Assembly (NCBI GenBank): GCA_044226625.1
Contig: JBGAGQ010000004.1
Span: forward strand, 1-64,000
Reading direction: 5' to 3'
DNA length: 64,000 bases
From: Thermoanaerobaculia bacterium
GTDB lineage: Bacteria > Acidobacteriota > Thermoanaerobaculia > Multivoradales > UBA5704
The first letter of the stretch is position 1. Every line of letters begins with the position of its first letter. Below the pieces are notes generated by a model, which saw only the letters and a program-made list of their open reading frames with translations, was not told where the DNA came from and did not search any database. Positions 8,462 to 60,100 of this stretch are shown here, piece by piece. Both the position numbers and the translations under genes were made by a program.

Positions 8462-9469
8462 TTAGCGCTCCGAGGAACCATCGATGACATTGATCGTCCA
8501 CGATTGGATCATGTTCCCGTCGCTGCCCTGAAGCTCGAGTCGGTACAGGCCCACAGGCAGCGCCCTACGCGTCAAGTTCAGGTTCCACCCAACCTGGAAA
8601 TTCGGCGGCTCCAACGGGCCCCGAGCCAGCTCCCGATCCCGTCTGTCGAACAGCACGATCGACACCGCCTTCGAAGGAGGCAGGTCGATTGGAAAACTAC
8701 CGTACAAACCCACCCGGTCGTTCAAACCGCCGCTGGCTGGAGGAAGCTCGAAATCGACCGCTCCCCGCACCGTGCCAGGCGAGAGAAAGCGCCGCGGCTC
8801 GTTGAACCGAGGAGCCGTCAAGCCCACTCTCAACCGCCGTAGCTCCGAGCGCTGTAAGCCCAGGGTGACCGCAAAGCACGCGGCGACCAACCAGGGAAGA
8901 ACATGACGGGCGATCGCAATCCGCCGCTTGGGACGAGCCTCGAAGGGCAGGACCTTCGGCTCCGTCTTCCGCTCCTCATCCACTCCCAAACCCTTAATCG
9001 CCGCCCGGGCCGGGCCAACGGTCTCCTCCACCCAATCGCGGTACTCCGGATCGCGTTCGATTTCTTCGGCCATGGGGTCTTGGAGCACGTTCCCAGCGGC
9101 GATCGATTCCGCGAGAGCGCGCGCCGCGGCGAGCGTGCTGGGATCGAGAACCCCCGTGCGAAGCTCGGGGCGCAGTCGAGAGGCGGAAATCTCTACCGCG
9201 TGACCGCAACGCAGGACGAGCGGCCCCGAGAGGACGTCAGCGCCAAGGGAGAGGTCGTGGCTTCCCGCGAGGGATTGGGTATCGGCGGGTACGGCGAGAA
9301 ACGTCTCGGACAGCGCTTCGAGAAGCGCCCATTCGACCGGCAGCTCGGCCGTCTCGGGCAGGACGAAGATCTCCCCCGGACGCGCGGGCCGGCCCCGGCG
9401 CTCTTGCAGCTCACGCTCCAACAGGGAGCGGAGATCGACAGGTTCCGAAGAGGGCGGTTGGCTCGACAT
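8462..9469 (-). CDS. Single-pass membrane protein, putative anti-sigma factor / CHAT substrate
   Basis: C-terminal 335 aa of ORF 8462..11053, from MSSQPPSSEP. N-terminal cytoplasmic domain, TM LPWLVAACFAVTLGL, short coiled coil, extracytoplasmic beta-rich domain. Lies between a sigma-like gene and the CHAT gene. Confidence 0.7.
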   Translation of the reverse strand: MSSQPPSSEPVDLRSLLERELQERRGRPARPGEIFVLPETAELPVEWALLEALSETFLAVPADTQSLAGSHDLSLGADVLSGPLVLRCGHAVEISASRLRPELRTGVLDPSTLAAARALAESIAAGNVLQDPMAEEIERDPEYRDWVEETVGPARAAIKGLGVDEERKTEPKVLPFEARPKRRIAIARHVLPWLVAACFAVTLGLQRSELRRLRVGLTAPRFNEPRRFLSPGTVRGAVDFELPPASGGLNDRVGLYGSFPIDLPPSKAVSIVLFDRRDRELARGPLEPPNFQVGWNLNLTRRALPVGLYRLELQGSDGNMIQSWTINVIDGSSER

Positions 9470-9498
9470 GTCGTCTCTTTCGCTTCCGGACCGTTCCG

Positions 9499-10698
9499 TC
9501 AGTGCGAACCGGGCCGCGGGGTCTCGGGACGGTTCCAATCTCGGTCGGCGATGTCGGCGCGCGATCCCCGGCAGGCGTCGATCAGCCGGCGCAAGACGTC
9601 CATCGCACCCGGGATTCGCTCTCTCGGCAGACCGAGGAGCACGGAGAGCTCGCGGTTCGAGGGAAGCCGGTCCCCGACGAGCCCCCCTTCCTTCGCCCAG
9701 ATCCGAAGATAACCCCACAGCCGTTCGACCGGGCGGCGGCTTCGTTCGTCGCCCGGCATTCGCGCGACGGCCCGAACCACGCAGGCGACCAACGCGCGAA
9801 AGCCGTCGCGTTGCTCGAGCAGGAGGTCCGACGCGGGCTCGATCGCATCTGCGGTCTTCGCCCGGTCGCCCCATGCGGTCCCGTCCCCCGCGGACGCCGG
9901 GGCGGGCCCCGCGACGCCGAGGCGCTCGCGACCGCTCCCCAGGATAGTCGCCCAGCGGCCTCGGACCTCGGCCTTCAGCGGATCGATCAGCTCCTGGAAC
10001 GAAAAGACGTCGAATCCCTCGTCCCACAGCTCGACCAATCGCACTCGCAGCCGTTCGACAAGGGGGTCCTCTTTCCGTCCGGTCGCCGTGACGAGATCGG
10101 GCAAGAGATCGTCGCACCAGCGCGCCACCCGATGGGCGACTCGCTCCGCGCGATCCTGAACGGGAACGTCCTCCCCTCCGGAATTGAAGGTGAGCATCGT
10201 CTCGTTGCGGATCCGCGGATCGCCCGCGAGCACTGCCAGGTCCCCCTCCTCGACCGCAGCCCGGAGGGCCCGATGGAGCACCTGGAAGACACGGGCCCCG
10301 AGAGGGTCGCAATCGCGTTGCCGCTCGTGCACGAAGTGTCGGACGTTCAGATAGACCAGCCCTTCGATGTCGGGCTTGACCCGCAGCTGGGCGCCGAGCG
10401 ACCGGAGCCGATCGACGAAGATGTAGCTGAAGCAGTCGGCCAACAGCTCCTCGAGCGCCCCGCCGCGTCCTGAGGACCCCGGCTCCCATCGTTCGGCGCC
10501 ATAGACACCGAGATAGGTGGGCGAGGTTTCCCAAAGACCTCGTCGCTTGATTTCGGCACGGAGTGCCCGCTTGAGCTCGGCGAGGACCGGAACCACGTCC
10601 CGCTTCTCGGGCTCGGACGTGCGCACGTAATCCGTGAATACCCGGGACGTTTCGCCAAGCCCACGACCGCTTCCACCCTTCAAAGTGCGTCCATTCAA
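9499..10698 (-). CDS. Atypical sigma-70/ECF-like DNA-binding regulator
   Basis: Region-2-like EELLADCFSYIF...GLVYLNVRHFVHERQR; C-terminal HTH-like LPSNRELSVLLGLPRERIPGAMDVLRRLI; GC-rich codon pattern typical of coding DNA. Start uncertain (may be the GTG near 10640). Confidence 0.6.
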   Translation of the reverse strand: MNGRTLKGGSGRGLGETSRVFTDYVRTSEPEKRDVVPVLAELKRALRAEIKRRGLWETSPTYLGVYGAERWEPGSSGRGGALEELLADCFSYIFVDRLRSLGAQLRVKPDIEGLVYLNVRHFVHERQRDCDPLGARVFQVLHRALRAAVEEGDLAVLAGDPRIRNETMLTFNSGGEDVPVQDRAERVAHRVARWCDDLLPDLVTATGRKEDPLVERLRVRLVELWDEGFDVFSFQELIDPLKAEVRGRWATILGSGRERLGVAGPAPASAGDGTAWGDRAKTADAIEPASDLLLEQRDGFRALVACVVRAVARMPGDERSRRPVERLWGYLRIWAKEGGLVGDRLPSNRELSVLLGLPRERIPGAMDVLRRLIDACRGSRADIADRDWNRPETPRPGSH

Positions 10699-10874
10699 TC
10701 ACGAAGACGGGAGTTTTAGCCCCCTCCTCGTCGATCGATCCAGCCAGTTCCGAAAAACCGCGCGTTAGAAGCGTACGGAGGCGGCAAGCGGACCGCCACC
10801 GCAAATCGGGGATCCCCAAACCGCAAACCAAGAAGGTCTGCCGCGGCTCTCGTGGAGCCGCCAAGGGGAGCTCT

Positions 10875-11387
10875 ATGTCTACGAACGTCAATTCTTCGCC
10901 CGCATCCTGTCGCAATCGCGTTTCGCTCGTCGCCACCCTCGTCGCACTCGCGTTCTTCGCCTTTGCTTTCGGCGATCCCGCCGCCGCCGCCACCTGCGGC
11001 GAAGGGCTCGCGAGCTGGACCTCCGGAAGCCGTCTGGTCCACAGCATCACCACTTCGTCGAGCTATGCCAACGAGATCGACGAATGGGACAGCGACGTGG
11101 TGAAGATTCGCCACAACATCGCGGGCATGCTCGTGCTGGGCGCCAAGGGCGTCGCAATCTCCGGGACCCTCTACGTCTGGAACCCGGCGACCGAAGAAGC
11201 CGATGTGGTGGGAACCATGTCGCTCGGCGGCGGCTCGGGCAACACCTTCACGACCGCAGTGGACGTGGGTGACTACTGCCTCGAGATCGCTGACGACGAA
11301 TCGGAGGGCTACTACGAGCTGAACATCAACTTCCTCGACGGCTGCACCCTCGGTACCCTGTCTCCGACCTTCTGCGAGAATCAGTAA
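10875..11387 (+). CDS. Secreted Cys-containing protein, PPC-like beta-sandwich
   Basis: AAGGGGAG RBS; signal peptide (VSLVATLVALAFFAFAFGDPAAAA); beta-strand pattern ending GDYCLEI...GYYELNINF; followed by a terminator. Confidence 0.8.
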   Translation: MSTNVNSSPASCRNRVSLVATLVALAFFAFAFGDPAAAATCGEGLASWTSGSRLVHSITTSSSYANEIDEWDSDVVKIRHNIAGMLVLGAKGVAISGTLYVWNPATEEADVVGTMSLGGGSGNTFTTAVDVGDYCLEIADDESEGYYELNINFLDGCTLGTLSPTFCENQ

Positions 11388-11416
11388 CCCTCGCTCCAAG
11401 CCGCGGAACCCCGACG

Positions 11417-11447
11417 ACGCCGAGGTCCCAAGGGACCTCGGCGTTTT
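11417..11447. terminator. Intrinsic terminator, probably bidirectional
   Basis: Perfect inverted repeat ACGCCGAGGTCCC-AA-GGGACCTCGGCGT followed by TTT, between convergent genes. Confidence 0.8.
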
Positions 11448-11460
11448 CGTCTTCCCGGGC

Positions 11461-12423
11461 TTAAGCCTTGAGCCCGATCTCGGCAAGGCGCTGATTCAAG
11501 AAGTCGCCGGCGGAGATCGGCGGATACTTCGCGGGTTGGTCGTCGGTGACGAACCGGGGCAGAACCGACAGATCGGCCTTCGAGTAGGGATGGACGAAGA
11601 ACGGCATCGAGTAGCGCTCCCGGCCGGCGTCGCCGGGGTTGACCACCCGATGGGTGGTCGCCGGCACCACCCCGTTCAGGTGCCGGGAGAGCATGTCTCC
11701 CGCGTCGACCACGATCTCTCCCGGTCCAGTCTCGACCGGCAGCCATTCCCCCTCACGCGTGAGGATCTCCAATCCCGAATCGGTGGCCTCGCAGAGCAGG
11801 GTGATGAGGTTGATGTCTTCGTGCTCCGCGGCTCGCACCGCGCCCGGCGGCACCCCTTCGCCCAAGGCAGGGTAATGGAGAATGCGCAAGAGGCTGTTGC
11901 CATGGACCGTCATGTCGGCCAGCTGGCGCCGAGGAAGCCCGAAGTACTCGGCGAGCGCCTCGAGCAAGATCCGGGCGGTCGCTTCGAGCCGCCGATAGAG
12001 ATCGACCGTGGTGTCCCGGATCCCGGGGATCGAGGCAGGCCAGACGTTCGGGGGATAGGGTTCCCTGCCCGGATGGTCGTCCGGCAGAGCCGCGGCGGCA
12101 TCCGGTTCCTGGCCGACGTGGTAGAACTCCTTGAGGTCGGGCGTGGGGTTGTCTTTGGCGTGCTCCACCCCGAACGGGGTGAAGCCGCGGCTGCCGCTGG
12201 CGACGTAGCGCCTCTTCTCCTCTTCAGGCAGGTCAAAGAAACGCCGCCACAAATCGTAGGTCTTGCGGATCACGGCGGCGTCGACGCCGTGCGCTTCGAC
12301 GTTCAGGAACCCGAACTCGACCAGACCGGCGCCGAGCGTATCGATCATCTGCGTCCGCCGCTCGGGGGTACCCGACCGGTAGTCGTCCAAGTTGACGCTG
12401 GGAATGTTGCGAGCTGCGGCCAT
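11461..12423 (-). CDS. Isopenicillin-N-synthase-family 2OG-Fe(II) oxygenase
   Basis: GFLNVEAHGV, DLKEFYHVG, HEDINLITLL (HxD), THRVVNP, RYSMPFF; ATG 12423 with GGAG RBS. Confidence 0.9.
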   Translation of the reverse strand: MAAARNIPSVNLDDYRSGTPERRTQMIDTLGAGLVEFGFLNVEAHGVDAAVIRKTYDLWRRFFDLPEEEKRRYVASGSRGFTPFGVEHAKDNPTPDLKEFYHVGQEPDAAAALPDDHPGREPYPPNVWPASIPGIRDTTVDLYRRLEATARILLEALAEYFGLPRRQLADMTVHGNSLLRILHYPALGEGVPPGAVRAAEHEDINLITLLCEATDSGLEILTREGEWLPVETGPGEIVVDAGDMLSRHLNGVVPATTHRVVNPGDAGRERYSMPFFVHPYSKADLSVLPRFVTDDQPAKYPPISAGDFLNQRLAEIGLKA

Positions 12424-12513
12424 CGCGGGACTCTCCTCGAAGGTTGTACGGGGGACCGTGCGGACCAACGAGGAGAGTTTACCAGGCGATGCGAGAAGGG
12501 CTTCGAGACGGGC

Positions 12514-14238
12514 CTATACCCGAACGCTTTCGGTCCGGACGAAGGAGGCGGCCATCGCCTCGGGATCGATCCGGGGCACGTCGAACTCCACCTTCCCCGC
12601 GTCGAGCTTGATCAGCCGGTCCGCCACGTCGTAGTAGTGATCGTCGTGACTGATGACGAAGACGGTCTTTCCCCGGCGTTTCAGCTCGGGCAACAGCTCG
12701 CGGTAGAAGATCTGCTTGAAGTAAGGATCCTGGTCCGCCGCCCACTCGTCGAACAGATAGATCGGTCGATCTTCGAGGTAAGCCGCGAGCAGGGCGAGCC
12801 GCTTGCGTTGGCCTTGCGAGAGTTCCAGGGTCGACAATCGTGCGCCGCTGACTCGGACCTTGGAAGAGAGGCGGAGGCGCTCCAGATAGTGGACGGCGTG
12901 CGCGTCGAGCTCATCGGCCGAAGCTCCCGTTCCGACCAGTCGGTCGAACAGATGGAAGTCGGAAAACACCACCGCGAAATGGTCGCGGTAGTCCGCACGA
13001 TCCGCATCGCTCACCGTCCGGCCCGCGAGTCGAATCTCGCCCACTTCCGGCGGATACAGGCCGAGCAGGATCTTCGCGAGAGTCGTCTTGCCGCTTCCGT
13101 TGCCGCCGACCAGGAACACAATTTCCCCCGGTACGAATCGGAGGTCGAGCGGTCCCAGCGTGAAACTCTCGCTCTCTCCCCCGGCGCCTTCCGCGCGGTA
13201 GGTATGGACGATCCCGGACAGCTCGATCGACTTCCAATCCGCGTCGAGATCTTGTGGCGCTCGCGCGAGGCCGGGAGCCTCGATCGCCTCGTGGGCGAGC
13301 GATAGACCCAACCTCTCGACCGCCCGCGCCGAAACCACCGCGCGGCCGATCAGGGGCAGCATGTTGAGAAGGATCTCGAGGGGAGTCATCAGTTGGAAAA
13401 GGACGAGCGCGGTCCCCACCAGCGTCGCCGCCGGCATCTCCTGCCCCCGGGGCACGACGAAGATGATCAGGCCCAGGAGAAGGAAGAAGACGATCTGTCC
13501 CCAGCTCGCCGCGACGGCGAAGAGCAACCCTCCACGTTTGGCCTCGCGCTGAAGCGTCCGCGCGTTGATCTCGACGTCGGCCATGTAGGACTCGCGCCGA
13601 AGGCCGTGCATCTTGAGCTCTTTGGTCCCTTCGGTGAGCCCCCGGAGGTTCTTGAGCACGCCGTCCATCTCTTTCCGGACGCGGTCGAAATAGACCATTC
13701 CCCGATCGACCGGAAAGCGGTACGTCGCCACCCCGAAGACCATGAAAAGGAGGACGTACGACAGGGCCGTCGGAGAGAGCCAGCCGAGGTACCCGAGGCA
13801 GCCGATCACGATCGCGACGTGCATGAAGAGCAACGGAAGCTGGGTCAGAGCCTCGACGATCTGATTGATGTCGTTGGTGAGGACGGTCATCAACCGGTGG
13901 GGACCGATGGTCTCCAGCTGGCGCAAAGGCGCGGCGAGGACGCGGCGGGCGAGGGCGATGCGCGCCTGCAGCATGCTGCGCTGCGACAGGTGAAGCAGCA
14001 GATACTGCGACGTCATTCGGAAGAGCGGCAGCAGAGCGCACAACCCGATGAACCGCCAACCGAGGCCGGAGGCCGGCCCGCCGTGCGCGATCGCCGAGTT
14101 GAGCGTCGCCACCAATGCCGTGTTCGACAGACCACTCGCAACGCCTGCGAGGATGACCCCGGCGATCAGCAATCCCGAGAACGGAACGCCGCGCGAAAGC
14201 CGGCGCAGGAACGACAGCAGCGCGACGAGATCAGCCAT
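12514..14238 (-). CDS. Cyclic-peptide export ABC transporter (PvdE/SyrD/YojI family), fused TMD+NBD
   Basis: Six TM segments; GTKELK; GGNGSGKTT Walker A; LSQGQRKRLAL; DEWAADQDP family signature; ISHDD. Start MADLVALL at 14238 overlaps the TauD stop. Confidence 0.93.
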   Translation of the reverse strand: MADLVALLSFLRRLSRGVPFSGLLIAGVILAGVASGLSNTALVATLNSAIAHGGPASGLGWRFIGLCALLPLFRMTSQYLLLHLSQRSMLQARIALARRVLAAPLRQLETIGPHRLMTVLTNDINQIVEALTQLPLLFMHVAIVIGCLGYLGWLSPTALSYVLLFMVFGVATYRFPVDRGMVYFDRVRKEMDGVLKNLRGLTEGTKELKMHGLRRESYMADVEINARTLQREAKRGGLLFAVAASWGQIVFFLLLGLIIFVVPRGQEMPAATLVGTALVLFQLMTPLEILLNMLPLIGRAVVSARAVERLGLSLAHEAIEAPGLARAPQDLDADWKSIELSGIVHTYRAEGAGGESESFTLGPLDLRFVPGEIVFLVGGNGSGKTTLAKILLGLYPPEVGEIRLAGRTVSDADRADYRDHFAVVFSDFHLFDRLVGTGASADELDAHAVHYLERLRLSSKVRVSGARLSTLELSQGQRKRLALLAAYLEDRPIYLFDEWAADQDPYFKQIFYRELLPELKRRGKTVFVISHDDHYYDVADRLIKLDAGKVEFDVPRIDPEAMAASFVRTESVRV

Positions 14239-15325
14239 GCAGCGCCACCGCGGTGGCGGCATCGTCCACCAAGACCGGAGAGAGCTCGGACCAGGTCTTG
14301 GGGTCGGCCATCGCGACGAGGACCTTGCGCTCGCCGGTGAAGGGCGAGCGACCGTGCGCCGAGAGCATGTTGTCGAGCACCAGCAGGTCGCCGGGTTCCC
14401 AAAGGAACTTGATCGTCTCGGCGTCGTAACAGGCGCGCAAGTGGTCGAGCACGTCGTCTTCGATCGGCGACCCGTCGCCATAGTAGGTATGGGTGGGCAG
14501 ATCTTCGATCTCGAACTCGTCGAGCAAGGCGTCGCGAACGATCGGTGTCATCGTCGACAGGTTGAAGAACGTCGCGTGGTTGAACCAGACCAGCTCGCCG
14601 GTATAGGGATGACGCGAGACGGCGGGACGGACGGCTCGGGTACGCAACCGGTCGCCCTCTTTCCACTCGACCTGGATGCCGTTCTTCGCGCAATGCGCTT
14701 CGACCTGCGCGCGATCGTCGGTCTGAAACACCTCGCGCCATGCGAGCCCGAAGCCGTCGCCGAAGTTGCGGACGTACGTCCACTTCTTTTCGACGAACTT
14801 CTTGCGAACTTCCGGATCGATCCGCTGGTAGATGCGACGGGTGTCGGCGATCGGCGTCTCTCCCCCTTCCTTGGCGCAGATGTAGGAGAAGAAGCCGATG
14901 CGCATCGGCCAGACGTTCTGGTAGGAGTTCTCGTTGTGCAAGAAGATCGGCTGATCGGGCGGATAGTCGGTCGACGTATAGACCTTGCCGGCCACCGCGT
15001 GACGGGGCGAAGAGCGCTCCTTGTACTCCAGCATGTCTCCCGCGATGGCGCGGAAGGCACGCTCGAAGTCGGCGATCTCCTTGAGCGGGAAACCGCGGAA
15101 CAGCAGGCCACCATGGCGGTAGAGCTGGTCGGTGAGCTGATCCCGGTGCGCCTCGGCCCAGGCGAGGAGGTCGACACCGGGGACGGCGGGCCGCAAGACG
15201 ACCGGCAGCGTCCCACCGCCGGGAAGCGATCCAAAATGCACGAGGTCGTCGGTCGATACGCTCACGGCACGCCGGATGGGCTGGCCGATCGAAGACAGCG
15301 AAGGTTTGGTCGTACTTTCGGTCAT
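14231..15325 (-). CDS. TauD/TfdA-family dioxygenase, SyrP-like (amino-acid beta-hydroxylase)
   Basis: GGLLFRGF, YTSTDYP, IFLHNENSY (HxE), GGETPIAD, WFNHATFF, DNMLSAHGR. Confidence 0.9.
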   Translation of the reverse strand: MTESTTKPSLSSIGQPIRRAVSVSTDDLVHFGSLPGGGTLPVVLRPAVPGVDLLAWAEAHRDQLTDQLYRHGGLLFRGFPLKEIADFERAFRAIAGDMLEYKERSSPRHAVAGKVYTSTDYPPDQPIFLHNENSYQNVWPMRIGFFSYICAKEGGETPIADTRRIYQRIDPEVRKKFVEKKWTYVRNFGDGFGLAWREVFQTDDRAQVEAHCAKNGIQVEWKEGDRLRTRAVRPAVSRHPYTGELVWFNHATFFNLSTMTPIVRDALLDEFEIEDLPTHTYYGDGSPIEDDVLDHLRACYDAETIKFLWEPGDLLVLDNMLSAHGRSPFTGERKVLVAMADPKTWSELSPVLVDDAATAVALHG

Positions 15326-15534
15326 TGAAAGGGCTCCGTCAGGAAAGCGGGAAAGAGGCGCACGATTCCTGCCTGTAGTAGTGGGGGGAGCCGGGGCAAG
15401 CGAGACATGAAAGGGCCGTTCGTCCCAGGTCCGAGGGGTTCGGTCACAAAGAGTCTTCGCAGATGTGCGCTCGCGCGAACCCCCTCCATAGAATCGAGGC
15501 GAGAGAGGGGCAAACCACGACGAAGGAGTTCATC

Positions 15535-15696
15535 ATGCAGAAGAAAGCCCGCAAACTCGAGCTCGGCCGCGAGACCCTCCGACTCCTGGAGATGAACCCC
15601 GGCACCCCCGTCCTCGGCGGCGCGCTGACCGACACCTGCACCCAGCGGGAGAGCTGCGGCGGCACTTGCCTGAGCCGCTGTACGAGCTGCTGCTAG
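15535..15696 (+). CDS. RiPP precursor peptide A1 (53 aa): double-Gly leader plus Cys/Thr/Ser-rich core
   Basis: AAGGAG RBS; MQKKARKLELGRETLRLLEMNPGTPVLGG|ALTDTCTQRESCGGTCLSRCTSCC; LxLxRx5L leader motif. Confidence 0.88.
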   Translation: MQKKARKLELGRETLRLLEMNPGTPVLGGALTDTCTQRESCGGTCLSRCTSCC

Positions 15697-15791
15697 ACGG
15701 CCGAGCCCCGGGCGCCCACGCCTCCAGCGGGGCGCCCATCCCGCCCAGATGACGGTCGGATCCCATAGAATCCTCCCGATCGAAGCCCCTT

Positions 15792-16991
15792 ATGAACTGG
15801 AACTCTCGCTACCGGACCACCGGCTCGCTGACGTTCGCCCTCACCCCATCGGGCAAGCTCGTCGCCACCCACTCGATCTCCCGCCCCCCCCAGGAAGTCG
15901 ACCTCGATGCGATGCCGGTCCTCCGGGCTTTCGCTCCGGGCGCCACCTCGCGCGAGGTCTTCGACCGATTGGCCGAGGACTGGGAGGTCGAGGAAGCCGG
16001 CTTCGAGATCGTCGTCCAGACACTGGTCGAGCAAAATCTTCTCACCCCCGAAGGGTCCGAGGCGACCTCGCTCGCCACCTCGGGGTTCGCCTCGCCGCTC
16101 TCCCACCACCACATGCTGAGAGACGATCTCCGGGTCTCGGCCTACCGCCAGGCGATTGAGCGCCATTGCGCGGGGCGAAAGGTACTCGAGATCGGCTGCG
16201 GCACGGGAATCCTCTCCCTGTTCGCCGCCCGCGCCGGCGCTCTCTCGGTCGACGCGATCGAGGAGAGCACGATCGCCGAGGCCGCGGCGGAGCTGTTCGC
16301 GGCCAACGCTCCCTTCGGCGCCAAGATCGCCCTTCACCGAGGCAACAGCCGGGACGTCGCGCTGGATGCCCAGGCCGAGATCCTGATTCACGAGCTCTTC
16401 GGGACGGATCCCTTCGAGGAGAACCTACTCCCCGCCCTGGCGGATGCTCGAGAGCGCCTACTCCTCCCCGGATCACGATTCCTTCCCGCGCGCCTGGAGG
16501 TCGCCTGCATAGGAATCGACGCCGGGGCGAGCGGCGTCACGGACCCCCGCAAGATTGTGAACGAGGCTCTCGAGTACGCCGGTCGTTTCGGCCTCGAAAT
16601 GGCCCCCTGGCTCGCGCGGCTCGCTCAGGTCGATCCGCAAAGCCTCCGCGCCACCGCGCGCGCCACCTCGTTTGTGGTGCTCTCGACCGAGTGCCGGCTC
16701 CTCGCGCTCGATTTCGCGGCCGACGACCTCGCTACTCCATCGCTGGTGGCCACTCCACGCTTCCGGATCCAGAATGCCGGCACCTTGAGCGCTCTCGTCG
16801 TGTTCTTCCGGGCCACTTTCGACGAGGACATCGCGATCTCGACTGCACCGGACGCGCCCGGCACGCACTGGGGGCACGACTTACGGATCCTGCCGGTATC
16901 GCGCGAAGTTGCGCCGGGCGACGAGATTCCCTTGGTCGCGACGCTCGAAGGGGCGTACGGCCGCCAGAAGCTCAAGGTGGGCCTCGCCTGA
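15792..16991 (+). CDS. PRMT-like SAM-dependent (arginine) methyltransferase with N-terminal RRE/PqqD-like domain
   Basis: HHMLRDDLRVSAYRQAI, VLEIGCGTGILSLFAARAGA, double-E loop ELFGTDPFEE, THW loop GTHWG; N-terminal ~90 aa strand+helix pattern ending LVEQNLL. Confidence 0.85.
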   Translation: MNWNSRYRTTGSLTFALTPSGKLVATHSISRPPQEVDLDAMPVLRAFAPGATSREVFDRLAEDWEVEEAGFEIVVQTLVEQNLLTPEGSEATSLATSGFASPLSHHHMLRDDLRVSAYRQAIERHCAGRKVLEIGCGTGILSLFAARAGALSVDAIEESTIAEAAAELFAANAPFGAKIALHRGNSRDVALDAQAEILIHELFGTDPFEENLLPALADARERLLLPGSRFLPARLEVACIGIDAGASGVTDPRKIVNEALEYAGRFGLEMAPWLARLAQVDPQSLRATARATSFVVLSTECRLLALDFAADDLATPSLVATPRFRIQNAGTLSALVVFFRATFDEDIAISTAPDAPGTHWGHDLRILPVSREVAPGDEIPLVATLEGAYGRQKLKVGLA

Positions 16992-17114
16992 CATCCGCGA
17001 GCGGACGAGAGCTCAGCGGTTCGCTTTCGCCCATCACCGACACCTTCTTTTCTATAGAGACGCTACGCCGCGAGACCTCACTCCGGCGAGTACGTCTCCC
17101 CAAAGGAGCCCTCG

Positions 17115-17282
17115 GTGAAGAAGAAACTCTCCAAGCTCGCGCTCAGCCGTGAAACCGTCCGCCGCCTGGAACCGTCCCAGCGCAGCCTCGTCGCAGGGGG
17201 CTTCACCGAGGTCGAGACCTGCGGATTCACCTGCAAAGAGAGCTGCGGCGAGCGGACGCGCTGCTCGATCTGCTGTTTCTAA
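17115..17282 (+). CDS. RiPP precursor peptide A2 (55 aa), absent from the ORF track
   Basis: AAAGGAG RBS, GTG start; MKKKLSKLALSRETVRRLEPSQRSLVAGG|FTEVETCGFTCKESCGERTRCSICCF-stop; paralogous to A1. Confidence 0.88.
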   Translation: MKKKLSKLALSRETVRRLEPSQRSLVAGGFTEVETCGFTCKESCGERTRCSICCF

Positions 17283-17290
17283 CCCCCCGA

Positions 17291-17320
17291 TTCGGCCCGC
17301 CGTCCGTCGCGCGGGCCGAA
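17291..17320. terminator. Hairpin between convergent precursor A2 and pstB
   Basis: TTCGGCCCGC-N10-GCGGGCCGAA perfect 10-bp stem; no strong U tract. Confidence 0.6.
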
Positions 17321-53033: not shown

Positions 53034-56000
53034 TCATCCCAAGAACCCGAACGTCTCCACCGCCCGTGCCCGTCCCTCCCCCGCGTCGATCCGTTCGATC
53101 TCGGCGAGGTAAGCCTCCTCGAGGTTCGGTTCGGCCAGGTCACCTTGGATCGGATCTCCGGGGCGGGCGACGGCGCGGACTTCGAGGCCTTCCAGGCGCC
53201 GGACGCGGGCGGTGACGCGGTAGCGATGGCTAAACGAGGTCAGATCGGAGTCAGCGAGGAGCGCCGAGAAGACCTGGCCTCGGGCTCTTTCGAGGAGGGC
53301 GTCGGGGGCGCCGTCGAAGCGGAGTCGGCCGCGGTGGATCAGAAGGATGCGCGAGGCCGCGGCCTCGATGTCGCTCGCTATGTGAGTGGAGAAGAGCACG
53401 ATCCTGTCGGCGGCCTGTTCGAGAAGGATCTGGCGGAAGCGGGCCCGCGATTCGATGTCGAGGCCGGTCGTCGGCTCGTCGACGATCAGGATCGGCGGCG
53501 CGCCGAGCAGCGACCGGGCGATTCCGACCCGCTGCCGCATTCCACCCGAGAAATCGCGTACCTTCCGGCCGGCATGCTCGGCAAGGCCGACCGCGGCGAG
53601 CAGCGTTTCGATCTCCGCAGATCGCCTTGTCGGATCGTCGATCCGCCGCTCACGCGCCCAGTGATCGAGGAACTGTTCGGCGGTGAAATCCGGATAAGCG
53701 TTGAACTCCTGCGGGAGAAATCCGATTCGTAGCCTGTAGTCCGCGAGGTTCTCCGGCGTGACCTCGACGTTTCGGAAGGAAACCGAGCCGCGAGTGGGCG
53801 ATAGAAGCCCCGTGAGCAGACGGAGCAGCGTGGTCTTGCCCGCGCCGTTCGGCCCGAGCAAGCCGGTGATTCCGGGGGTGAGCTCGAAGCTCACCTGCCG
53901 GAGCGCCCGGTGGCCCGAGGAGTAGGTCTTCGCGAGACTCCTCACGGCGATCCGCGGCGGATCCACGCCCACCTCCGCGTTCCAGGCGGGAGGATGTCGG
54001 CGGCGGCGGTTCAACTCAGGATCCCGGGCCTGAAAGCGAGCGACCGCGAGGAGCAGCGGCGGCACTACGAGCAGGGCGACCGCGAGCGCGACCGAACCGG
54101 ACACGGCGGCGACGCGTAGCGGCACGACCCAGCGCGCGCGGATGAAATCGGCGCCCAGGGTGGGAAGAAAGCAAACGAGCGCGACCGGCACGAGCGCGCA
54201 GGTGAGCCACGGCGTCTCGCGGCGCAGCTGGCGATACACGCGATAGAGGGAGTCGGCGCCCGCCGACCGGACTCGCCGGCCGAGCCCGGATCCCGCATCC
54301 GCTGCCGCGGCCACCGTGGCTGCCTCCGCCGCCTCCGCCGTTGCGGGGAGAGACAGGCAGAGACTCGCGATCAAGGCGAGAACGGACAACTCGTCCACCT
54401 CGCCGAGGGTCGCCGCAACGAGCGGCGTCGCCGCGAGGAGGCCTGCCGCGAGCGGCACCAGGGCGACCCACGCCGCCAGGATCCCGTTCAGGCGCCAACC
54501 GGCGACCGCGAACAGCAGCAGCGGCACGGCGAGGCCGAACGCGAGAAGCCGTAGCCGCTCTTGTCGCCAGTAGAGAAACGACAACCGCGGCCGTTCGAGG
54601 TCGACCCCGGCGGGCAGCCGCAGACGCTCGAGCCCCCGGTCGACGTCCTTCCGTCGCAGGACGCGGGCATCGCGCGCCCCCTCGTGGAAACGAACCTCGA
54701 TCGGCACCACCCACCGACCGGACTGGCGTTCGACCCTCGGGATCACCGAGTCTTCCCGCAAGGCGAAAAGCGCGGCGGGCACGACCGTCCGGTCGCCGAT
54801 CGGCAGCGGCTTCGAGAGAAGCGACGCCATCTGCGGGATCTCGCGATCGGGATCGAGCGCAGAGCCCGCAGGCACGACGACCAAGGACCGCGAAACACCC
54901 CCGAGACCGGGGGAGAGCGGCCGCCGAGAAGGGGCGGTGCTCGCCAGAGCCAGGGCTCGAGTCACCGCGTCGACGTCGGTTCGGGAGGCGCTCGGAAGCG
55001 GCTCGAGCGTGAGCAGGGCCGAGGGGGCATCCCAGCCCGTGATCGATCGCGAGCGGATCTTGGCGTCGGCCAATCGGCCGAGAATCCGGACGTAGGCGGC
55101 CGACAGGGCCTCGAGGTCGCCTCCGCGCAGGACCATGCGATACCAGAGCGCCTCCTCGTCGGCTTCCGCTCGATCTTCAAGCTCGGCGGCGAAGGCTCCG
55201 GCGCCGGCCGCCCCCGCCCCGGTCTCGATGCGTGCCGAGGCCGCCGCAGGAATCTCGTACCGGAGGGTGGTCGCGAGCGCGGCCAACCGGTCGGGGCGCC
55301 GGTCGCTCGGGCGAACCTCCACTCTGAGGTAGGCATGTCCGGCGCGGAAGCTGCTCCAGTAGCGTTCGATCGCCCCGGAGCGATCGAGCCGGAGCTCGAC
55401 CGCCCGCACCTGTGTCGCGGTCTCTTCGAGCGTCGCGCCTTCGGGGAGATTCATTCGAATCTCGAAGCTGCCGCCGTCGGGCGAGAGATCCCCCGGACGG
55501 GGAACGAGCGCGCCGCCATAGAGCGCAGCGAGCAGTCCGCACACGGTCCCGAGGACCAGCACGGCGGTGCCCGGGTCGCGCAGCGTCCGCCGTAGCCAAG
55601 GAAGCGGCCCGGCGGTCAGCGCGCGCCATCCGGCGACCAGGGCGCGGCGCGGCGAATTCCGAAATTCGGCGGAGACACTTCGCGACACCGAAGCCCGAGG
55701 GCCGCTCCCTGACTCCCCTGATCTCGCGGGCGGTAGAGCGGCGGCGAGGACTGCTGCGGCGGCGGCGAGAAACAGGGCGCGCGCAGGCTCGGAAAGCAGC
55801 GGAGAAAGAGCGGGACCGGCGAAGGCGACGGAGGCCGGCAACGTCGCGGCGGCCAAGGCCGTGGTCAGCGCGAACGACCGATAGCCGCGGCCCCCTGATC
55901 GGCCCAGTCGGAGAGCGACGGCCGGGAGCGCCGCCGTAGAGCCGAGAAGGAGCGCCACCAACGTGGTCACATCGAGCGGAAGCCCGGCGAGCCAGAGCGC

Positions 56001-57134
56001 GTTGACGGCTGCCGCGAGGCCAGCCGGAAGGGCTAGACCGAGGCTCCACGCTCCCGTCGTGCCGGCGAGCCGGTAGCCGAGACCGGCCGCCACGACCGCA
56101 GCCGCGAGCAACCCGAGCGCCATCCTGAGGAGCAGAGATCGGAGCGGCTCGGCCTCGCTCCAATCGATGGTGCCGCGGACGTGGAGGGAACTCTGGGCGA
56201 GCTGCTCGATCTGGAGCCGGAGCGCGCGGTCGGCCGCGAGAACCGACGCCCCCTCCGCCCGCCAGACGAACAGCGCGCGGGCGGGTCGGCCGCGGTAGCG
56301 GACCTGGAATTCGGGCGGCGGGTAGCGCTCGCGTACCGCGGCCACGGTGGAAAGCGGAGCCGCGCCCGTGGCGAGAGAAGCCCCATCCGCCTCCTCGATC
56401 CGGCTCGACGGCGCCGATCGGAGATCGGGCCGAGCTCCCGGCCAAGGTACTGGCACGCGAACCAACGTCTCGGGCGCCGCCGGCTCGACGACGACCGGCA
56501 TTCGAAAGTCCCCGCTCCGCGCCGTACCAAGATCGCCACGGCGGAACGCGCCGTCCAGAATCTCCCGGATTCGGCCGACGGCCGCCGCCGGATCGCGGAG
56601 GCCGGCCGCGAGCTCCACCCGGATCTCCTCGCGCCGGAGCCCGAGGGCATCCACCGAGCGGACGCCGGGAACGCCACGCAACTCCTCGGCCGCCGCCTCG
56701 GCCGCGGCGTCGGACGTCGCGCCGGATAGCCAGACCAGCGCCAGCAGATGTCCCTCCACTTGAGAGGCTGGATCGACAGATAGCGTCGCACCTGGTGGCA
56801 ACCGCCGCCGCAACGGGGCGAGCTCCGACAGGAGGCGCGCCGCCTTGCTCTCCGGATCGGTGCCGGCGGCGAAGCGGACGCGGATCTCTGCGCCGTCCGA
56901 GCGTACTTCGCCCGCGCTCCCTCGCACCCGGCCGAGCGAGCGGATCGCCGCCTCGATCTCTTCCACCCAGTCGCGCGCGACCGAGGCCGGTTCGCGCGCC
57001 TCAGGCAGCGCGAGGGCGATCGTCAGCTCGGGGAAGCTCCGCCGCGGGAGATAGTCGAGCGACAGCCGGGAGAACGAGACGCTCCCCAGGATCAACAACC
57101 CGAAGGTAGCCACCCGGCGGGCGATCGGCTTCAT
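53034..57134 (-). CDS. Degenerate RND (AcrB-like) permease fused to a C-terminal ABC ATPase
   Basis: AcrB-like N-terminus (RLSLDYLPRRSFPELTI, VEEIEAAI), two TM blocks and LPEGATLEET; then an intact NBD (GPNGAGKTT, FLPQ, FSGGMRQ, IVDEPTTGLD, STH) in one open frame. Confidence 0.85.
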   Translation of the reverse strand: MKPIARRVATFGLLILGSVSFSRLSLDYLPRRSFPELTIALALPEAREPASVARDWVEEIEAAIRSLGRVRGSAGEVRSDGAEIRVRFAAGTDPESKAARLLSELAPLRRRLPPGATLSVDPASQVEGHLLALVWLSGATSDAAAEAAAEELRGVPGVRSVDALGLRREEIRVELAAGLRDPAAAVGRIREILDGAFRRGDLGTARSGDFRMPVVVEPAAPETLVRVPVPWPGARPDLRSAPSSRIEEADGASLATGAAPLSTVAAVRERYPPPEFQVRYRGRPARALFVWRAEGASVLAADRALRLQIEQLAQSSLHVRGTIDWSEAEPLRSLLLRMALGLLAAAVVAAGLGYRLAGTTGAWSLGLALPAGLAAAVNALWLAGLPLDVTTLVALLLGSTAALPAVALRLGRSGGRGYRSFALTTALAAATLPASVAFAGPALSPLLSEPARALFLAAAAAVLAAALPPARSGESGSGPRASVSRSVSAEFRNSPRRALVAGWRALTAGPLPWLRRTLRDPGTAVLVLGTVCGLLAALYGGALVPRPGDLSPDGGSFEIRMNLPEGATLEETATQVRAVELRLDRSGAIERYWSSFRAGHAYLRVEVRPSDRRPDRLAALATTLRYEIPAAASARIETGAGAAGAGAFAAELEDRAEADEEALWYRMVLRGGDLEALSAAYVRILGRLADAKIRSRSITGWDAPSALLTLEPLPSASRTDVDAVTRALALASTAPSRRPLSPGLGGVSRSLVVVPAGSALDPDREIPQMASLLSKPLPIGDRTVVPAALFALREDSVIPRVERQSGRWVVPIEVRFHEGARDARVLRRKDVDRGLERLRLPAGVDLERPRLSFLYWRQERLRLLAFGLAVPLLLFAVAGWRLNGILAAWVALVPLAAGLLAATPLVAATLGEVDELSVLALIASLCLSLPATAEAAEAATVAAAADAGSGLGRRVRSAGADSLYRVYRQLRRETPWLTCALVPVALVCFLPTLGADFIRARWVVPLRVAAVSGSVALAVALLVVPPLLLAVARFQARDPELNRRRRHPPAWNAEVGVDPPRIAVRSLAKTYSSGHRALRQVSFELTPGITGLLGPNGAGKTTLLRLLTGLLSPTRGSVSFRNVEVTPENLADYRLRIGFLPQEFNAYPDFTAEQFLDHWARERRIDDPTRRSAEIETLLAAVGLAEHAGRKVRDFSGGMRQRVGIARSLLGAPPILIVDEPTTGLDIESRARFRQILLEQAADRIVLFSTHIASDIEAAASRILLIHRGRLRFDGAPDALLERARGQVFSALLADSDLTSFSHRYRVTARVRRLEGLEVRAVARPGDPIQGDLAEPNLEEAYLAEIERIDAGEGRARAVETFGFLG

Positions 57135-60100
57135 CGACGCGCGCCCCGAGAAGGCACCCGAGCAACGAGCGCCCGGTAGAGAACCGGCACCAGGAGGAGC
57201 GAAGCGAAGATCGAGGTGAACGTGCCGCCGAGGACGGCGAGGGCGAGCGAGCGCCGCAGCTCGACGCCCGGCCCGCCGAGCAGGGCGAGCGGCAGCATAC
57301 CCGCCAAGGTGCAGATCGTCGTCATCGCGATCGGCCGATAGCGCTCGGCCGCGGCGCGGCGGATCGCGGCGGTCGTCCGTTCGATCCGCGTGCTGGGTGC
57401 CGAGTCGGACACCGATGCGGCAGCCGAGATGCGCCGATGCTCCTCGATGCGATGGACCAGGACGATCGCATTGTTGGCGACGATTCCGCCGAGCAGGATC
57501 AACCCGAGGAAAGAGAGAACGTTCAGGCTCTGCCCGAAAAGGGCCAAGACGCCCAACGCGCCGCCGATCGCGATCGGCACGGTCACCAGGACCACGAGCG
57601 GCAGGCGGAACGATTCAAACAGGGCGGCCACCGCGAGGAAGACCAGGGCAAGCGAGAGCAGCAGCGCGAGCCGGAGCTGACCGAACGCCTCGCGCAGCTC
57701 GCGCGCCTGGCCCGTCCATTCGACGTCCTCGCCCGCGGCGCGGCGTGCCACCCGCTTCAAGCGCGCGAGCGCATTCTCCGGATCGCCACGCAGTGTGGCG
57801 AACGCCCGTCGGGCCGCCGGCCGGCCGGCCTGTCGTTCCAGGACCTCGGGGCGAGCTCCCGGAACGATCCGCGCGAGAGCGGAGAGCGGCACCACCTCGC
57901 CCGGAAGACCCCCCGATTGGCTCGGCAGCCGCACCGGAAGGAGCCCCGGACCGGACGACTCGACCGGCTCGGCGGCGCGCACCAGGATCTCCGGCTCGAT
58001 GCCGGGAAGGCTCACCCGACCGGCCTCCTGCTCGGTAAGCCCTTCCCGCACCTCCTGCTCGACCTCCGATCGCTCGACGCCGAGCGCCCCGAGCCGGGCG
58101 AGATCCCATTGGAGCAGCCAAGCGCCCCGAGGGCCACCGTTCGGAGCTCCGCCGCGCCTCCCGGCCGAAGACGCGCCGAGCACGTCGAGCTCCTTTTCGG
58201 CGCGCGCAGCCAGCGCCTCGGCCCGCTCGGGCGTTGGCGCGGTCGCGACCATTTCGAGCCGCCGGCCGGAGCTGCGGATCGCGTCGACGAATGCGCTCGG
58301 TCGCGGCTCGATCCAGCTTTCGACCCCCGGGAGCTTTCCGAGCTCCGAGCGCAGGCTCTGTCGCGCCCGGTCGGCGTCGCGCTGCCGGGCGAAGGAAAGA
58401 ACCACGCGCCCCGTCTCCTCCCGGTCCTCCCCCGGCTCGGGGGGAGGGAGCTGAAGCGCGGTTCGCTCCCGCGCGCCGAGGCCCTCCACGGCTCGGGCGA
58501 CGGCGTCGTCGACCGAGAGGCCCAGCCGCCGCGCCACCTCGGGCGCGAGCTCGGACGGCAAGCGGAACCGCACCACGAGATCGGACGTTCCCGCCTCGGG
58601 CACCAGCTCGCGCGGCAGGACGGACCACGCCGCCGCCGCGAGCGCCGTGACGGCGAGCGCTCCGGCCACCACCGGAAGCGGCCGGGCGAGAACCCGATCG
58701 AGAAGGGCCAGATATCGCGCGCGGCCGAGATGTCGACCGGCGGGCTCGGCGAGCCCTCGGCCACGCCGGCCAGCCAGCACGGGCGTCAGGGTAAGCGAAA
58801 ACAGAAGAGAGGCCGCGAGCGAGGCGACGATCGCGAACGCCTGAACTCCGAAGAAGGCGCGGGCGAGCCCGCGCAGGTAGACCAGCGGCAGGAAGACCAC
58901 CGCCGTGGCGCAGAAGCTCGCGATCACCGGCGGCGCGATCTGAATCGCCCCGGACAGAGCGGGCGTCGCGACGCCTTCCGAGCGGGCGGTCTCGATCGCT
59001 TCGAGCACGACGATCGAGCTGTCGACCAGAAGCCCCGCGGCGAGCGCGAGGCCGGCCAGCGAGACGACGTCGAGCGCCGACCCCGCGATCGTAAAACCGA
59101 CGAACGCCGCGAGCAGCGAAGCCGGAACGACAACGATCAAGCCGAGCGTAGGCCGCCAGGCGCCGAGGACGAGCCGGAGCACGGCCGTGCCGAGCAGCAG
59201 GCCGAACAGCGCGCCGAGCCCGAGCTCCCTAAGGGCGCCCATCACCTCGCCGCTCCGGTCCGAGACGACGGCGAGGTGGACGCCGGACGCTTCTCGGGAG
59301 GAGAGATCTGCGGTCCGGGTCCGGACCGCGCGGGCGAGCGTCACGGCGTTCGCCTCGGGCGCGCGAAACACCCGCACCAGCGCGCCGTCCCGTCCATCGA
59401 AGCGGAAGAAGGTGCCATCGGTGACCTCTTCCAGGTGGACTCGGGCGACGTCGCCGAGCACACTCTCCCCGCGCGGTCCGGCGATCCGTAACGCTCGGAG
59501 CGCGTCGAGCGTCGACGCTTCGTCGCGCACCAGCAGCGGCCGGACCGATGCGCCGGAGCGCGCCCGGCCGGCCGAGACGTCGACCCCGACCGTGCGCAGG
59601 CGGGCGAGCAGATCGGCCGGGACGAGACCGCGCGCGGCGAGCGCCGCGCCGCGCGGGCGGACTACGGCGTGGCGCGGCAGGAGCCCCACCGTTTCAACCC
59701 GTCCCACCCCCTCGATCCGCGCGAGCTCCGGCACCAGGAGCTTCCGCGCGTACGCACTACGCGCCGCCCCCGACTCGCCGCCCAGGACCGCCACCTCGAC
59801 GATCGGCTCAGCGTCGCCCGCGGTCATCTCGATCGAGACCGTCGCCTCGTCCGACGCGGCGCCTTCGAGATCGGCGAGGCGCCGCTCGGCCTCGATCCGC
59901 ATCCGGTCGGCGTCGGCTTGCCACTCCCCCAGGACCCGGGCGCGGACGAAGCCGTCGCCGGTCGCGGTTCGCACCGTCGAAACCCCCGACATTGAGGCGA
60001 GGCGCCGTTCGAGCGGCCGGGCGTAGCGGTCGAGCATCTCGTCGCGCGAGCGCCCCGCCGCCTCGATCTCGACCTCCAACCGCGGCCGTTCGAGCGCGGG

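Follow-up and report, generated by a model that had tools for sequence, protein, structure and literature searches.

A putative arginine methyltransferase with an RRE-like domain between two class I lanthipeptide-type precursor genes in a Thermoanaerobaculia bacterium

In the 64,000-nt stretch of DNA analysed here (positions 1 to 64,000 of contig JBGAGQ010000004.1, assembly GCA_044226625.1, from a Thermoanaerobaculia bacterium of the Acidobacteriota; hereafter the window), two short genes encoding Cys-rich peptides, A1 and A2, lie on either side of a single gene for a 399-aa enzyme, in which a domain with the fold of a recognition element (RRE) of peptides that are made on the ribosome and modified after translation (RiPPs) precedes the catalytic core of a protein arginine methyltransferase (PRMT). 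On balance, we consider it probable that this enzyme N-methylates arginine under the guidance of a leader and so tailors one sub-family of class I lanthipeptides, the rings of which are made in trans. In function, the locus would be part of a class I lanthipeptide pathway to which one more tailoring enzyme has been added, though without LanB or LanC genes beside the precursors in the window. More tentatively, the enzyme may be the first RRE-tethered peptide arginine N-methyltransferase, defining methyl-arginine lanthipeptides within a genome-wide class I system that operates in trans (about 43 precursors, one leader, one LanB, and two LanC) and choosing its sub-family by an (S/T)RC(S/T)xCC tail.

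All three genes are on the forward strand. A1 (15535-15696, 53 aa) starts with ATG and A2 (17115-17282, 55 aa) with GTG rather than ATG, and each is preceded by an AAGGAG ribosome-binding site, read from the sequence, 6 nt 5' of its start codon (15523-15528 for A1 and 17103-17108 for A2); the enzyme gene occupies 15792-16991. The G+C content at third codon positions (GC3) is 0.91 in A1, 0.84 in A2, and 0.84 in the enzyme gene, compared with 0.51-0.58 when third positions are counted in either of the remaining frames. Since coding-type GC3 is confined to the stated frame, A1 and A2 both look coding, and the arrangement described in an earlier note on this DNA, i.e., two short paralogous open reading frames (ORFs) with strong ribosome-binding sites around one enzyme gene, was verified for the ORFs, the AAGGAG sites, and the codon composition. 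The enzyme gene is present as a single copy in the 6.6-Mb genome, and both A1 and A2 lie within 125 nt of that copy.

The enzyme belongs to the PRMT superfamily on all the sequence and fold criteria that were tested. Its catalytic core (residues ~100-399, 16089-16991, forward strand) consists of a Rossmann domain that binds S-adenosylmethionine (SAM) and a beta-barrel, and carries motif I, the double-E loop, and the THW loop. The C-terminal beta-barrel is recognized by Pfam PRMT_C at 31.4 bits (cut-off 27), and a profile of 33 homologues searched against the PDB returned PRMTs in all 60 listed matches, the best being PRMT8 (E 2.1e-53). Motif I reads EIGCGTGILS and aligns to motif I of PRMT8, with G135, C136, G137, and G139 invariant in the 33 homologues. 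Equally invariant are E201 and E210 of the double-E loop (family stretch hE..G.Dpf.En), which are aligned to the E...E of PRMT8 SEWMGYCLFYES, and T358 and W360 of the THW loop, where the family ThW aligns to the THW of PRMT8. The residues past the second Glu are unlike those of the aligned type I PRMT, with 'En.L' in the family versus 'ESML' in PRMT8. The AlphaFold2 (AF2) model of the enzyme (predicted local distance difference test, pLDDT, 88.3) is nearest to PRMT3, PRMT6, PRMT8, and CARM1, which Foldseek matched at E 1e-20 to 5e-23, with a TM-score of 0.7-0.83 on target length to PRMT3/6/8. No NCBIfam model claims the 399-aa enzyme. The PRMT fold put forward in the earlier note is thus borne out by a PRMT_C match over the cut-off, by PRMTs alone among the 60 listed PDB matches, and by intact double-E and THW loops. 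That both guanidinium-binding Glu residues are invariant, as are the THW loop and the motif for SAM, suggests that the enzyme is functional in arginine methylation, as far as sequence conservation can indicate. Among 151 genomes sampled from the class, 17 have the PRMT core (profile positions ~100-395) but not the RRE-like domain N-terminal to it (e.g., G025:C15:154328-155185 and G017:C31:7632-8441), so bacterial PRMTs seem fairly common in the class.

The N-terminal RRE-like domain (residues 1 to ~90, 15792-16061, forward strand) was delimited from the fold of the AF2 model, in which strands at residues 6-9, 14-17, and 23-26 are followed by helices at 38-47, 53-64, and 68-80, forming a winged helix-turn-helix. 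Residues 1-95 were modelled alone by AF2 (pLDDT 88.1) and compared by VIA-align with 48,161 representative chains. The top Z values were obtained with MibB 189-291 (10.5), MccB (9.9), TigE (9.8), MadB (8.8), TbtB (8.3), and ThcOx (8.1), followed by a lasso B1 protein with its leader (7.7), NisB 136-233 (7.7), the PbtF RRE (7.4), TbiB1 (7.4), and PqqD (7.1). RRE-bearing RiPP or related enzymes, including a sactipeptide synthase, make up 12 of the 15 top rows, at Z 7.1-10.5, where values below 8 can reflect a common arrangement. Foldseek recovered the same set at weak E-values of 0.04-0.3 (TbtB, TbiB1, TigE, MccB, and PqqD at 0.04-0.1). Pfam PqqD has no match in the enzyme, and a profile of the N-terminal domain gave only chance-level rows against PDB sequences. 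As there is no sequence match to any solved RRE, it is the fold that identifies the domain; the RRE fusion claimed in the earlier note therefore stands by fold, leader-binding RREs being the best structural matches, but not by sequence. A complex prediction of the whole enzyme with the A1 peptide (score 0.17, mark 0.32) has no bearing on whether the two bind.

The two peptides are 45% identical and, as previously described, share a K-rich N-terminus, an L-x-L-x-R-E-T-x-R-x-L stretch, and GG, after which each has exactly six Cys, with ESCG and R-C-(T/S)-x-C-C in both. Besides its 6 Cys, the A1 core (24 aa, C-terminal SRCTSCC) contains 8 Ser/Thr, and the A2 core (26 aa, C-terminal TRCSICCF) contains 6 Ser/Thr along with 6 Cys; both thus offer the Ser/Thr and Cys residues expected of class I lanthipeptides for thioether rings. 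The A2 leader passes NCBIfam model NF038153 (class I lanthipeptide, leader L1a) with 26.4 bits (cut-off 22), and A1 aligns with A2 and seven other such peptides from other loci. In a search of the organism's own genome with a leader hidden Markov model (HMM) built in this analysis, A1 scored E 3e-14 (range for A1 and A2 ~1e-13 to 1e-14), and 43 distinct peptides with the same leader were found spread over the 6.6 Mb; the genomes of five relatives gave 23-56 leader matches each. The cores of the 43 peptides are very diverse and rich in Cys, Ser, and Thr, and their sites include C4:57643-58497, C16:23769-24314, C16:67207-67380, C25:47898-48071, and C84:194725-194922.

What connects A1 and A2 to the enzyme, besides position, is the C-terminal tail. 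The RC[ST]xCC motif occurs in only two of the 43 leader peptides of the genome, and these are exactly A1 and A2; the chance of the two being the pair that flanks the enzyme is 1 in 903. The same tail is found in enzyme-linked peptides at other loci, as TRRCSACC (L019/L110), TRRCSVCC (L024), TRCSECC (L026), and TRCSYCC (L030). In two close relatives that have the enzyme without flanking peptides (genomes G002 and G004), the gene for a peptide ending in KRCTECC lies directly 5' of a LanC gene. The conserved Arg-Cys tail is thus tied to both the enzyme and lanthipeptide cyclases, and the Arg of (S/T)-R-C-(S/T)-x-C-C, singled out in the earlier note as a conserved residue, was indeed seen in enzyme-linked peptides from three separate lineages. 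An A1-like peptide is encoded in relative G002 (L085), and an A2-like peptide in relative G005 (L082). The remaining enzyme-linked peptides have differing cores, nearly all with an Arg adjacent to or near a Cys.

The protein collection contains roughly 80 full-length relatives of the enzyme at 40-76% identity, most of which carry the label Thermoanaerobaculia or Acidobacteriota. When species-representative genomes were scanned, 78 homologue loci were obtained, including 31 of the Acidobacteriota type, at which leader peptides were sought by leader HMM and tblastn. Leader-HMM matches were found at 10 of the 78 (L008, L010, L014, L019, L022, L023, L024, L026, L027, and L030), all within the 31 Acidobacteriota-type loci, versus about 2.1 of 31 expected by chance from the peptide density of the organism's own genome (binomial P 2e-5). 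At six of these ten (L008, L010, L014, L019, L022, and L027), the peptide gene is on the same strand and within about 130 nt of the enzyme gene. LanC adjoins the enzyme at L010, L019 (two copies), L024 (two copies), L026, L027, and L030, and LanB at L026 and L030, where the order is peptide-LanC-LanB-enzyme. The sample of 151 class genomes, which was searched for the full-length fusion and the leader family, adds L140, with peptide, LanB, LanC, and enzyme together, and L141, with enzyme-LanC-LanB; outside the window, there are 8 loci with the RRE-PRMT fusion beside LanC, with or without LanB. Peptide and enzyme occur with no LanB or LanC, within the locus stretch examined, at L008, L014, and L022. 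At the loci with two LanC copies, two tandem AIM24-family genes follow the enzyme (L019:7569-9320 and L024:7277-9026), both starting with a Cys-x-x-Cys zinc-ribbon-like N-terminus; the first is supported by Pfam and the second was judged from its translation.

In the class sample, the fusion is present in 5/151 genomes and the leader family in 11/151, and the leader occurs in all five fusion genomes versus 6 of the 146 others. The naive Fisher P for this co-occurrence (8e-7) overstates the case, because the five fusion genomes come from roughly three lineages. A quick tree with SH-like approximate likelihood ratio test (SH-aLRT) supports was rooted at the midpoint and so says nothing about root, donor, or the sequence of events. 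In its Acidobacteriota part, enzymes linked to peptides and to LanC occupy scattered positions, and the peptide-linked enzyme of L008 is sister to the clade of the window (SH-aLRT 100). A Myxococcota group is nested among the acidobacterial sequences, for which we claim no direction.

Neither LanB nor LanC/LanM, C39, YcaO, or radical-SAM genes are present in the 64-kb window, as had been noted earlier and as whole-genome family searches bear out, placing the matches on other contigs or, likewise outside the window, at C84:199352. The rest of the genome, which the earlier note had proposed to search for lanB, lanC, and C39 transporters, encodes one LanB (C93:87211), two LanC (C4:58712 and C114:7388), and one C39-type transporter (C93), and the leader HMM has no match on C93 or C114. 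With one LanB, two LanC, dispersed precursors, and no leader match on C93 or C114, trans action seems to be the rule in this organism. LanB and LanC encoded with the precursor, which the window lacks, were found at L026, L030, L140, and L141, and every searched genome with the fusion also has LanB or LanC. The complete genome G070, of the same family as that of the window, has LanB-like and LanC-like genes, no L1a-type leader at E 1e-6, and no RRE-PRMT; as it has Lan genes without this leader, its lanthipeptide systems must use another leader type.

In the mechanism that we propose, A1 and A2 would be class I lanthipeptide precursors of the L1a leader type, and the 399-aa protein would be their tailoring enzyme. 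The RRE-like domain would dock on the shared K-rich L-x-L-x-(R/K)-E-T-x-R-x-L leader, and the tethered PRMT core would, judging from its conserved motifs, move one or two SAM methyl groups to a guanidino nitrogen of a core Arg, the likeliest target being the Arg of the (S/T)-R-C-(S/T)-x-C-C tail. By analogy with the relatives that have these genes in cis, Ser/Thr dehydration may be performed in trans by LanB (C93) and thioether closure by LanC (C4 or C114), and the leader may be cut after GG by a protease encoded elsewhere. Hydroxylation by the TauD and 2-oxoglutarate (2OG) oxygenases encoded nearby, and export by an adjacent ATP-binding cassette (ABC) transporter, are conceivable further steps.

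Several observations weigh against this reading. A1 does not reach the NCBIfam leader model at E 0.1, and LanB and LanC are lacking both in the window and within 6 kb of the enzyme in its seven closest relatives, so that lanthionine formation here would depend on trans action. These seven closest homologues (L002-L007 and L016; 64-76% identity) lack a peptide gene next door: the intervals are not long enough to hold one, and HMM and tblastn were negative. Thus, the check proposed in the earlier note, i.e., whether similar Cys-rich peptides are syntenic with homologues, had a divided outcome, since such peptides recur at 10 of the 78 loci but stand beside none of the nearest kin, which also speaks against a dedicated cis maturase. 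These kin are otherwise syntenic; the twin-flank layout is thus peculiar to this genome, a local novelty, and the enzyme would normally work on peptides encoded elsewhere, if on them at all. No leader peptide was found at 21 of the 31 Acidobacteriota-type loci within the stretch examined, several of which are short contigs; shared genes among kin inflate the co-occurrence statistics; and the second enzyme-adjacent peptide of L019 has no core Arg. Furthermore, homologues in Myxococcus, Corallococcus, and Sorangium (36-38% identity) keep the N-terminal domain in a different setting: the enzyme is followed by a conserved ~466-aa protein and then by a nonribosomal peptide synthetase (NRPS; FAAL-T-C-A) or a CmlA-like diiron hydroxylase, at L034:5956-13212, L038:4789-13221, and L037:4452-11279 (Corallococcus terminator, Myxococcus sp. 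CA023, and Sorangium sp. So ce315), and the leader HMM found no leader-type peptide at the Myxococcota loci, where, in tblastx comparisons, noise in the high-GC DNA masks any conserved small ORFs. The neighborhood of NRPS genes means that the fold by itself is no proof of a ribosomal substrate. The ~466-aa neighbor was considered as SznF and dropped, as it has no PDB sequence match though SznF is solved, and no Pfam match; no gene of this type is present in the window.

It is possible, though in our view unlikely, that the enzyme acts on free arginine or on a carrier-bound or non-ribosomal substrate, perhaps together with the TauD and 2OG oxygenases and the ABC exporter, and that the peptides are adjacent by chance, in a genome that abounds in such genes. 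The closest relatives retain the 2OG-ABC-TauD-methyltransferase set without a peptide, and the Myxococcota homologues lie beside NRPS genes and a CmlA-like beta-hydroxylase, with a JmjC/cupin hydroxylase upstream of the homologue in Myxococcus. There is also a precedent for this reading: according to PMC11705231, SznE/StzE is a bacterial enzyme of secondary metabolism that N-methylates the guanidino group of arginine in streptozotocin biosynthesis and acts on free L-arginine. Judged by description, the enzyme here would share guanidino N-methylation with SznE/StzE, which differs in taking the free amino acid. The authors of RRE-Finder, moreover, took their methyltransferase hits as false positives. 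By contrast, the N-terminal domain is best matched by leader-binding RREs, it is unlikely that the genome's sole pair of RC[ST]xCC peptides was inserted to the left and right of the gene by chance, and the enzyme is linked in cis to peptides and to LanC repeatedly, in several lineages. TauD synteny, for its part, is found only in near kin, where the unrelated pstB is syntenic too, and no TauD was found at the more distant loci.

We also doubt that the locus represents a self-contained class, with the RRE-PRMT enzyme as the sole class-defining maturase and the six Cys held in disulfides or by metal, with no lanthionine. Such a reading would account for the lack of LanB and LanC in the window and for the three loci where peptide and enzyme occur without them (L008, L014, and L022), and a single LanB for 43 peptides in the genome fits it as well. 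Most core Cys of both A1 and A2 come immediately after a Ser or Thr (TC, SC), which is not the usual spacing of lanthionine rings. However, Ser/Thr are as plentiful as Cys in the cores, and all searched genomes with the fusion have LanB or LanC. The earlier note had put forward a candidate new RiPP class defined by this architecture, and that claim is not supported, as the leader belongs to the class I lanthipeptide family NF038153, enzyme homologues are in or beside lanC/lanB sets at 8 loci, and same-tail peptides are encoded directly 5' of LanC in G002 and G004. For these three reasons, a lanthipeptide cyclised in trans, which the note had offered as a fallback, is the better reading; LanB and LanC exist elsewhere in the genome.

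Still less probable is that the fusion binds the leader and performs other chemistry, either methylating a Cys thiol, a Lys, or the N-terminus or serving as a scaffold or chaperone for the trans-acting LanB and LanC. The Arg-less core of the second L019 peptide would be consistent with this, as would the divergent residues past the second Glu ('En.L' against 'ESML' in PRMT8). On the other hand, none of the 33 homologues departs from the guanidinium-binding Glu pair, the THW loop, or the SAM motif, and apart from the second L019 peptide all enzyme-linked peptides have one core Arg or more. Lastly, that A1 and A2 are chance ORFs or decayed copies that are not expressed is scarcely credible: they are very short and a consensus scan found no sigma-70-type promoter, but they have strong AAGGAG sites, coding-type GC3 in the stated frame only, conserved counterparts in other genomes (L082 and L085), and leader-HMM E-values of ~1e-13 to 1e-14, and a contig from an RNA library spans A2.

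This contig, from metatranscriptome library X3 of another study, is 222 nt long and identical to 17066-17287, covering all of A2 plus 49 nt upstream and ending 5 nt past the stop codon, and a second contig, of 178 nt, is identical to 16121-16298 inside the enzyme gene. The word depth of the A2 contig is far above that of the sole contig on the enzyme gene. No contig of library X3 covers A1 or most of the enzyme gene, and a contig gap proves nothing. Because the contigs show no strand, ends, or level and may be derived from DNA, they give a weak hint of expression.

Two structures might terminate or attenuate transcription at the locus. A G+C-rich hairpin between the convergent A2 and pstB (17291-17320, strand not assigned; minimum free energy -26.5 kcal/mol, z -3.5, 1/200 shuffles as stable) is likely a two-way terminator without a T-run. 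A G+C-rich stem-loop between A1 and the enzyme gene (15710-15737, forward strand), seen in the centroid structure, is a possible attenuator, the whole 98-nt spacer having a z of only -1.2. The consensus promoter and terminator scan, which lacked any sigma-70-type promoter, returned one terminator-like site, on the wrong strand inside A2; the organism may use promoter types outside the sigma-70 consensus. An AT-rich, -10-like element, CYATAGAR, is found upstream of all three genes (15486-15493, 15763-15770, and 17052-17059), and the A2 contig begins 7 nt past the third of these. In the 64-kb window, CYATAGAR has 5 matches at 4 sites (3 of them here) versus 1.15 matches expected; since the motif was chosen after being seen, it is a lead and not a test.

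Three genes to the left of A1, all on the reverse strand and not mentioned in the earlier note, might add accessory functions. A TauD/TfdA-family Fe/2OG dioxygenase (14231-15325; Pfam TauD, 173.9 bits), divergent from A1, is a possible accessory hydroxylase. The adjacent cyclic-peptide-type ABC exporter (12514 to ~14230; TIGR01194, 484 bits, cut-off 286), comprising permease and ATPase without a C39 domain, is a possible exporter of the products; because the listed ORF (12514-14481) overlaps TauD, its true start is probably near 14230, the start codon being uncertain. A 2OG-Fe(II) oxygenase (11461-12468), identified by DIOX_N and 2OG-FeII_Oxy domain matches, is another possible accessory enzyme. 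TauD adjoins the enzyme homologue in 5 close relatives (L002-L005 and L016), the 2OG oxygenase is syntenic in L002, L006, and L016, and no TauD was found at the more distant homologue loci. To the right of A2 are the pstBAC genes, with pstB convergent with A2. As pstB is syntenic in the same near kin, the synteny of TauD, the ABC exporter, and the 2OG oxygenase may just mirror close kinship, and we rejected these three as firm cluster members, their PDB relatives being generic as well. Two further reverse-strand ORFs with no Pfam family, of 863 aa (8462-11053) and 256 aa (10716-11486), are both kept beside the 2OG oxygenase in relatives, the former at 50% identity over ~700 aa in L006 and the latter at 41-48% in L002, L006, and L016. 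Elsewhere in the window, a 1366-aa ORF on the reverse strand (53034-57134) combines a piece of the AcrB type at its N-terminus (residues 2-175) with the ATPase domain of an ABC protein (1078-1223). It adjoins a full resistance-nodulation-division (RND) pump (57131-60205) and a membrane-fusion protein (60202-61710), and probably represents the read-through of two genes or else an unusual fusion.

The closest parallel for the genome-wide organization is offered by prochlorosin-type systems, in which many precursors share one leader and one synthetase; these are class II (LanM) and cyanobacterial. As there, genes that share a leader but not a core occur by the dozen across the genome (43 here and 23-56 or more in each of five relatives) alongside few synthetases. 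Unlike them, the system here is class I (LanB and LanC) and acidobacterial, and has a tailoring enzyme specific to a sub-family. With 43 peptides for one LanB and two LanC, it looks like a class I counterpart of the many-precursor, one-synthetase systems.

As for the enzyme, it shares with eukaryotic type I PRMTs (PRMT1, 3, 6, 8, and CARM1) the Rossmann and beta-barrel fold, motif I, and the double-E and THW loops, but at 21-26% identity, in a bacterial host, with an RRE-like domain as the presumed substrate-recruiting N-terminal module, and with a small secreted peptide rather than a cellular protein as the presumed substrate. With RRE enzymes (NisB, MibB, MadB, MccB, lasso B1, and PqqD) it shares the three-strand/three-helix winged helix (Z 7-10.5) and, with NisB and MccB, a catalytic fusion, although no RRE fused to a PRMT turned up in the literature searched and the domain has no sequence-level match to solved RREs. 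A methylated Arg is also present in the RiPP plantazolicin, where the N-terminal Arg is dimethylated by a different methyltransferase family on the alpha-amine and not, as proposed here, on the guanidino group by a PRMT.

Actinobacterial class I clusters carry PF01135 O-methyltransferases as tailoring enzymes, as described in 10.1101/2020.03.13.990614. Such clusters resemble the locus here in their lanthipeptide-type leader, Ser/Thr/Cys-rich core, a recurrent SAM methyltransferase by LanB/LanC, and a conserved core residue as the presumed target; here, however, the enzyme has the PRMT fold and its own RRE and is not an isoaspartate/Asp O-methyltransferase, and LanB and LanC are outside the cluster. 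In the searchable literature, including PMC12710340, RRE-Finder, 10.1101/2020.03.13.990614, and PMC11705231, with subscription journals and supplementary tables beyond its reach, we found no description of an RRE-PRMT fusion or of a guanidino-methylated Arg in a RiPP.

If the proposed function is true, the RRE-PRMT fusion would add a new reaction to RiPP tailoring and give peptide engineering a compact arginine methylase that can be addressed through a leader, and PRMT chemistry, known mainly from the regulation of eukaryotic proteins, would have been recruited into the tailoring of bacterial natural products. The same fusion beside NRPS genes in the cultivable Myxococcus, Corallococcus, and Sorangium would provide a tractable entry to its biochemistry. 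Because LanB and LanC lie elsewhere, the locus escapes rule-based cluster finders, and lanthipeptide pathways that are dispersed in these Acidobacteriota, with dozens of precursors and few enzymes, would change how their biosynthetic potential is counted.

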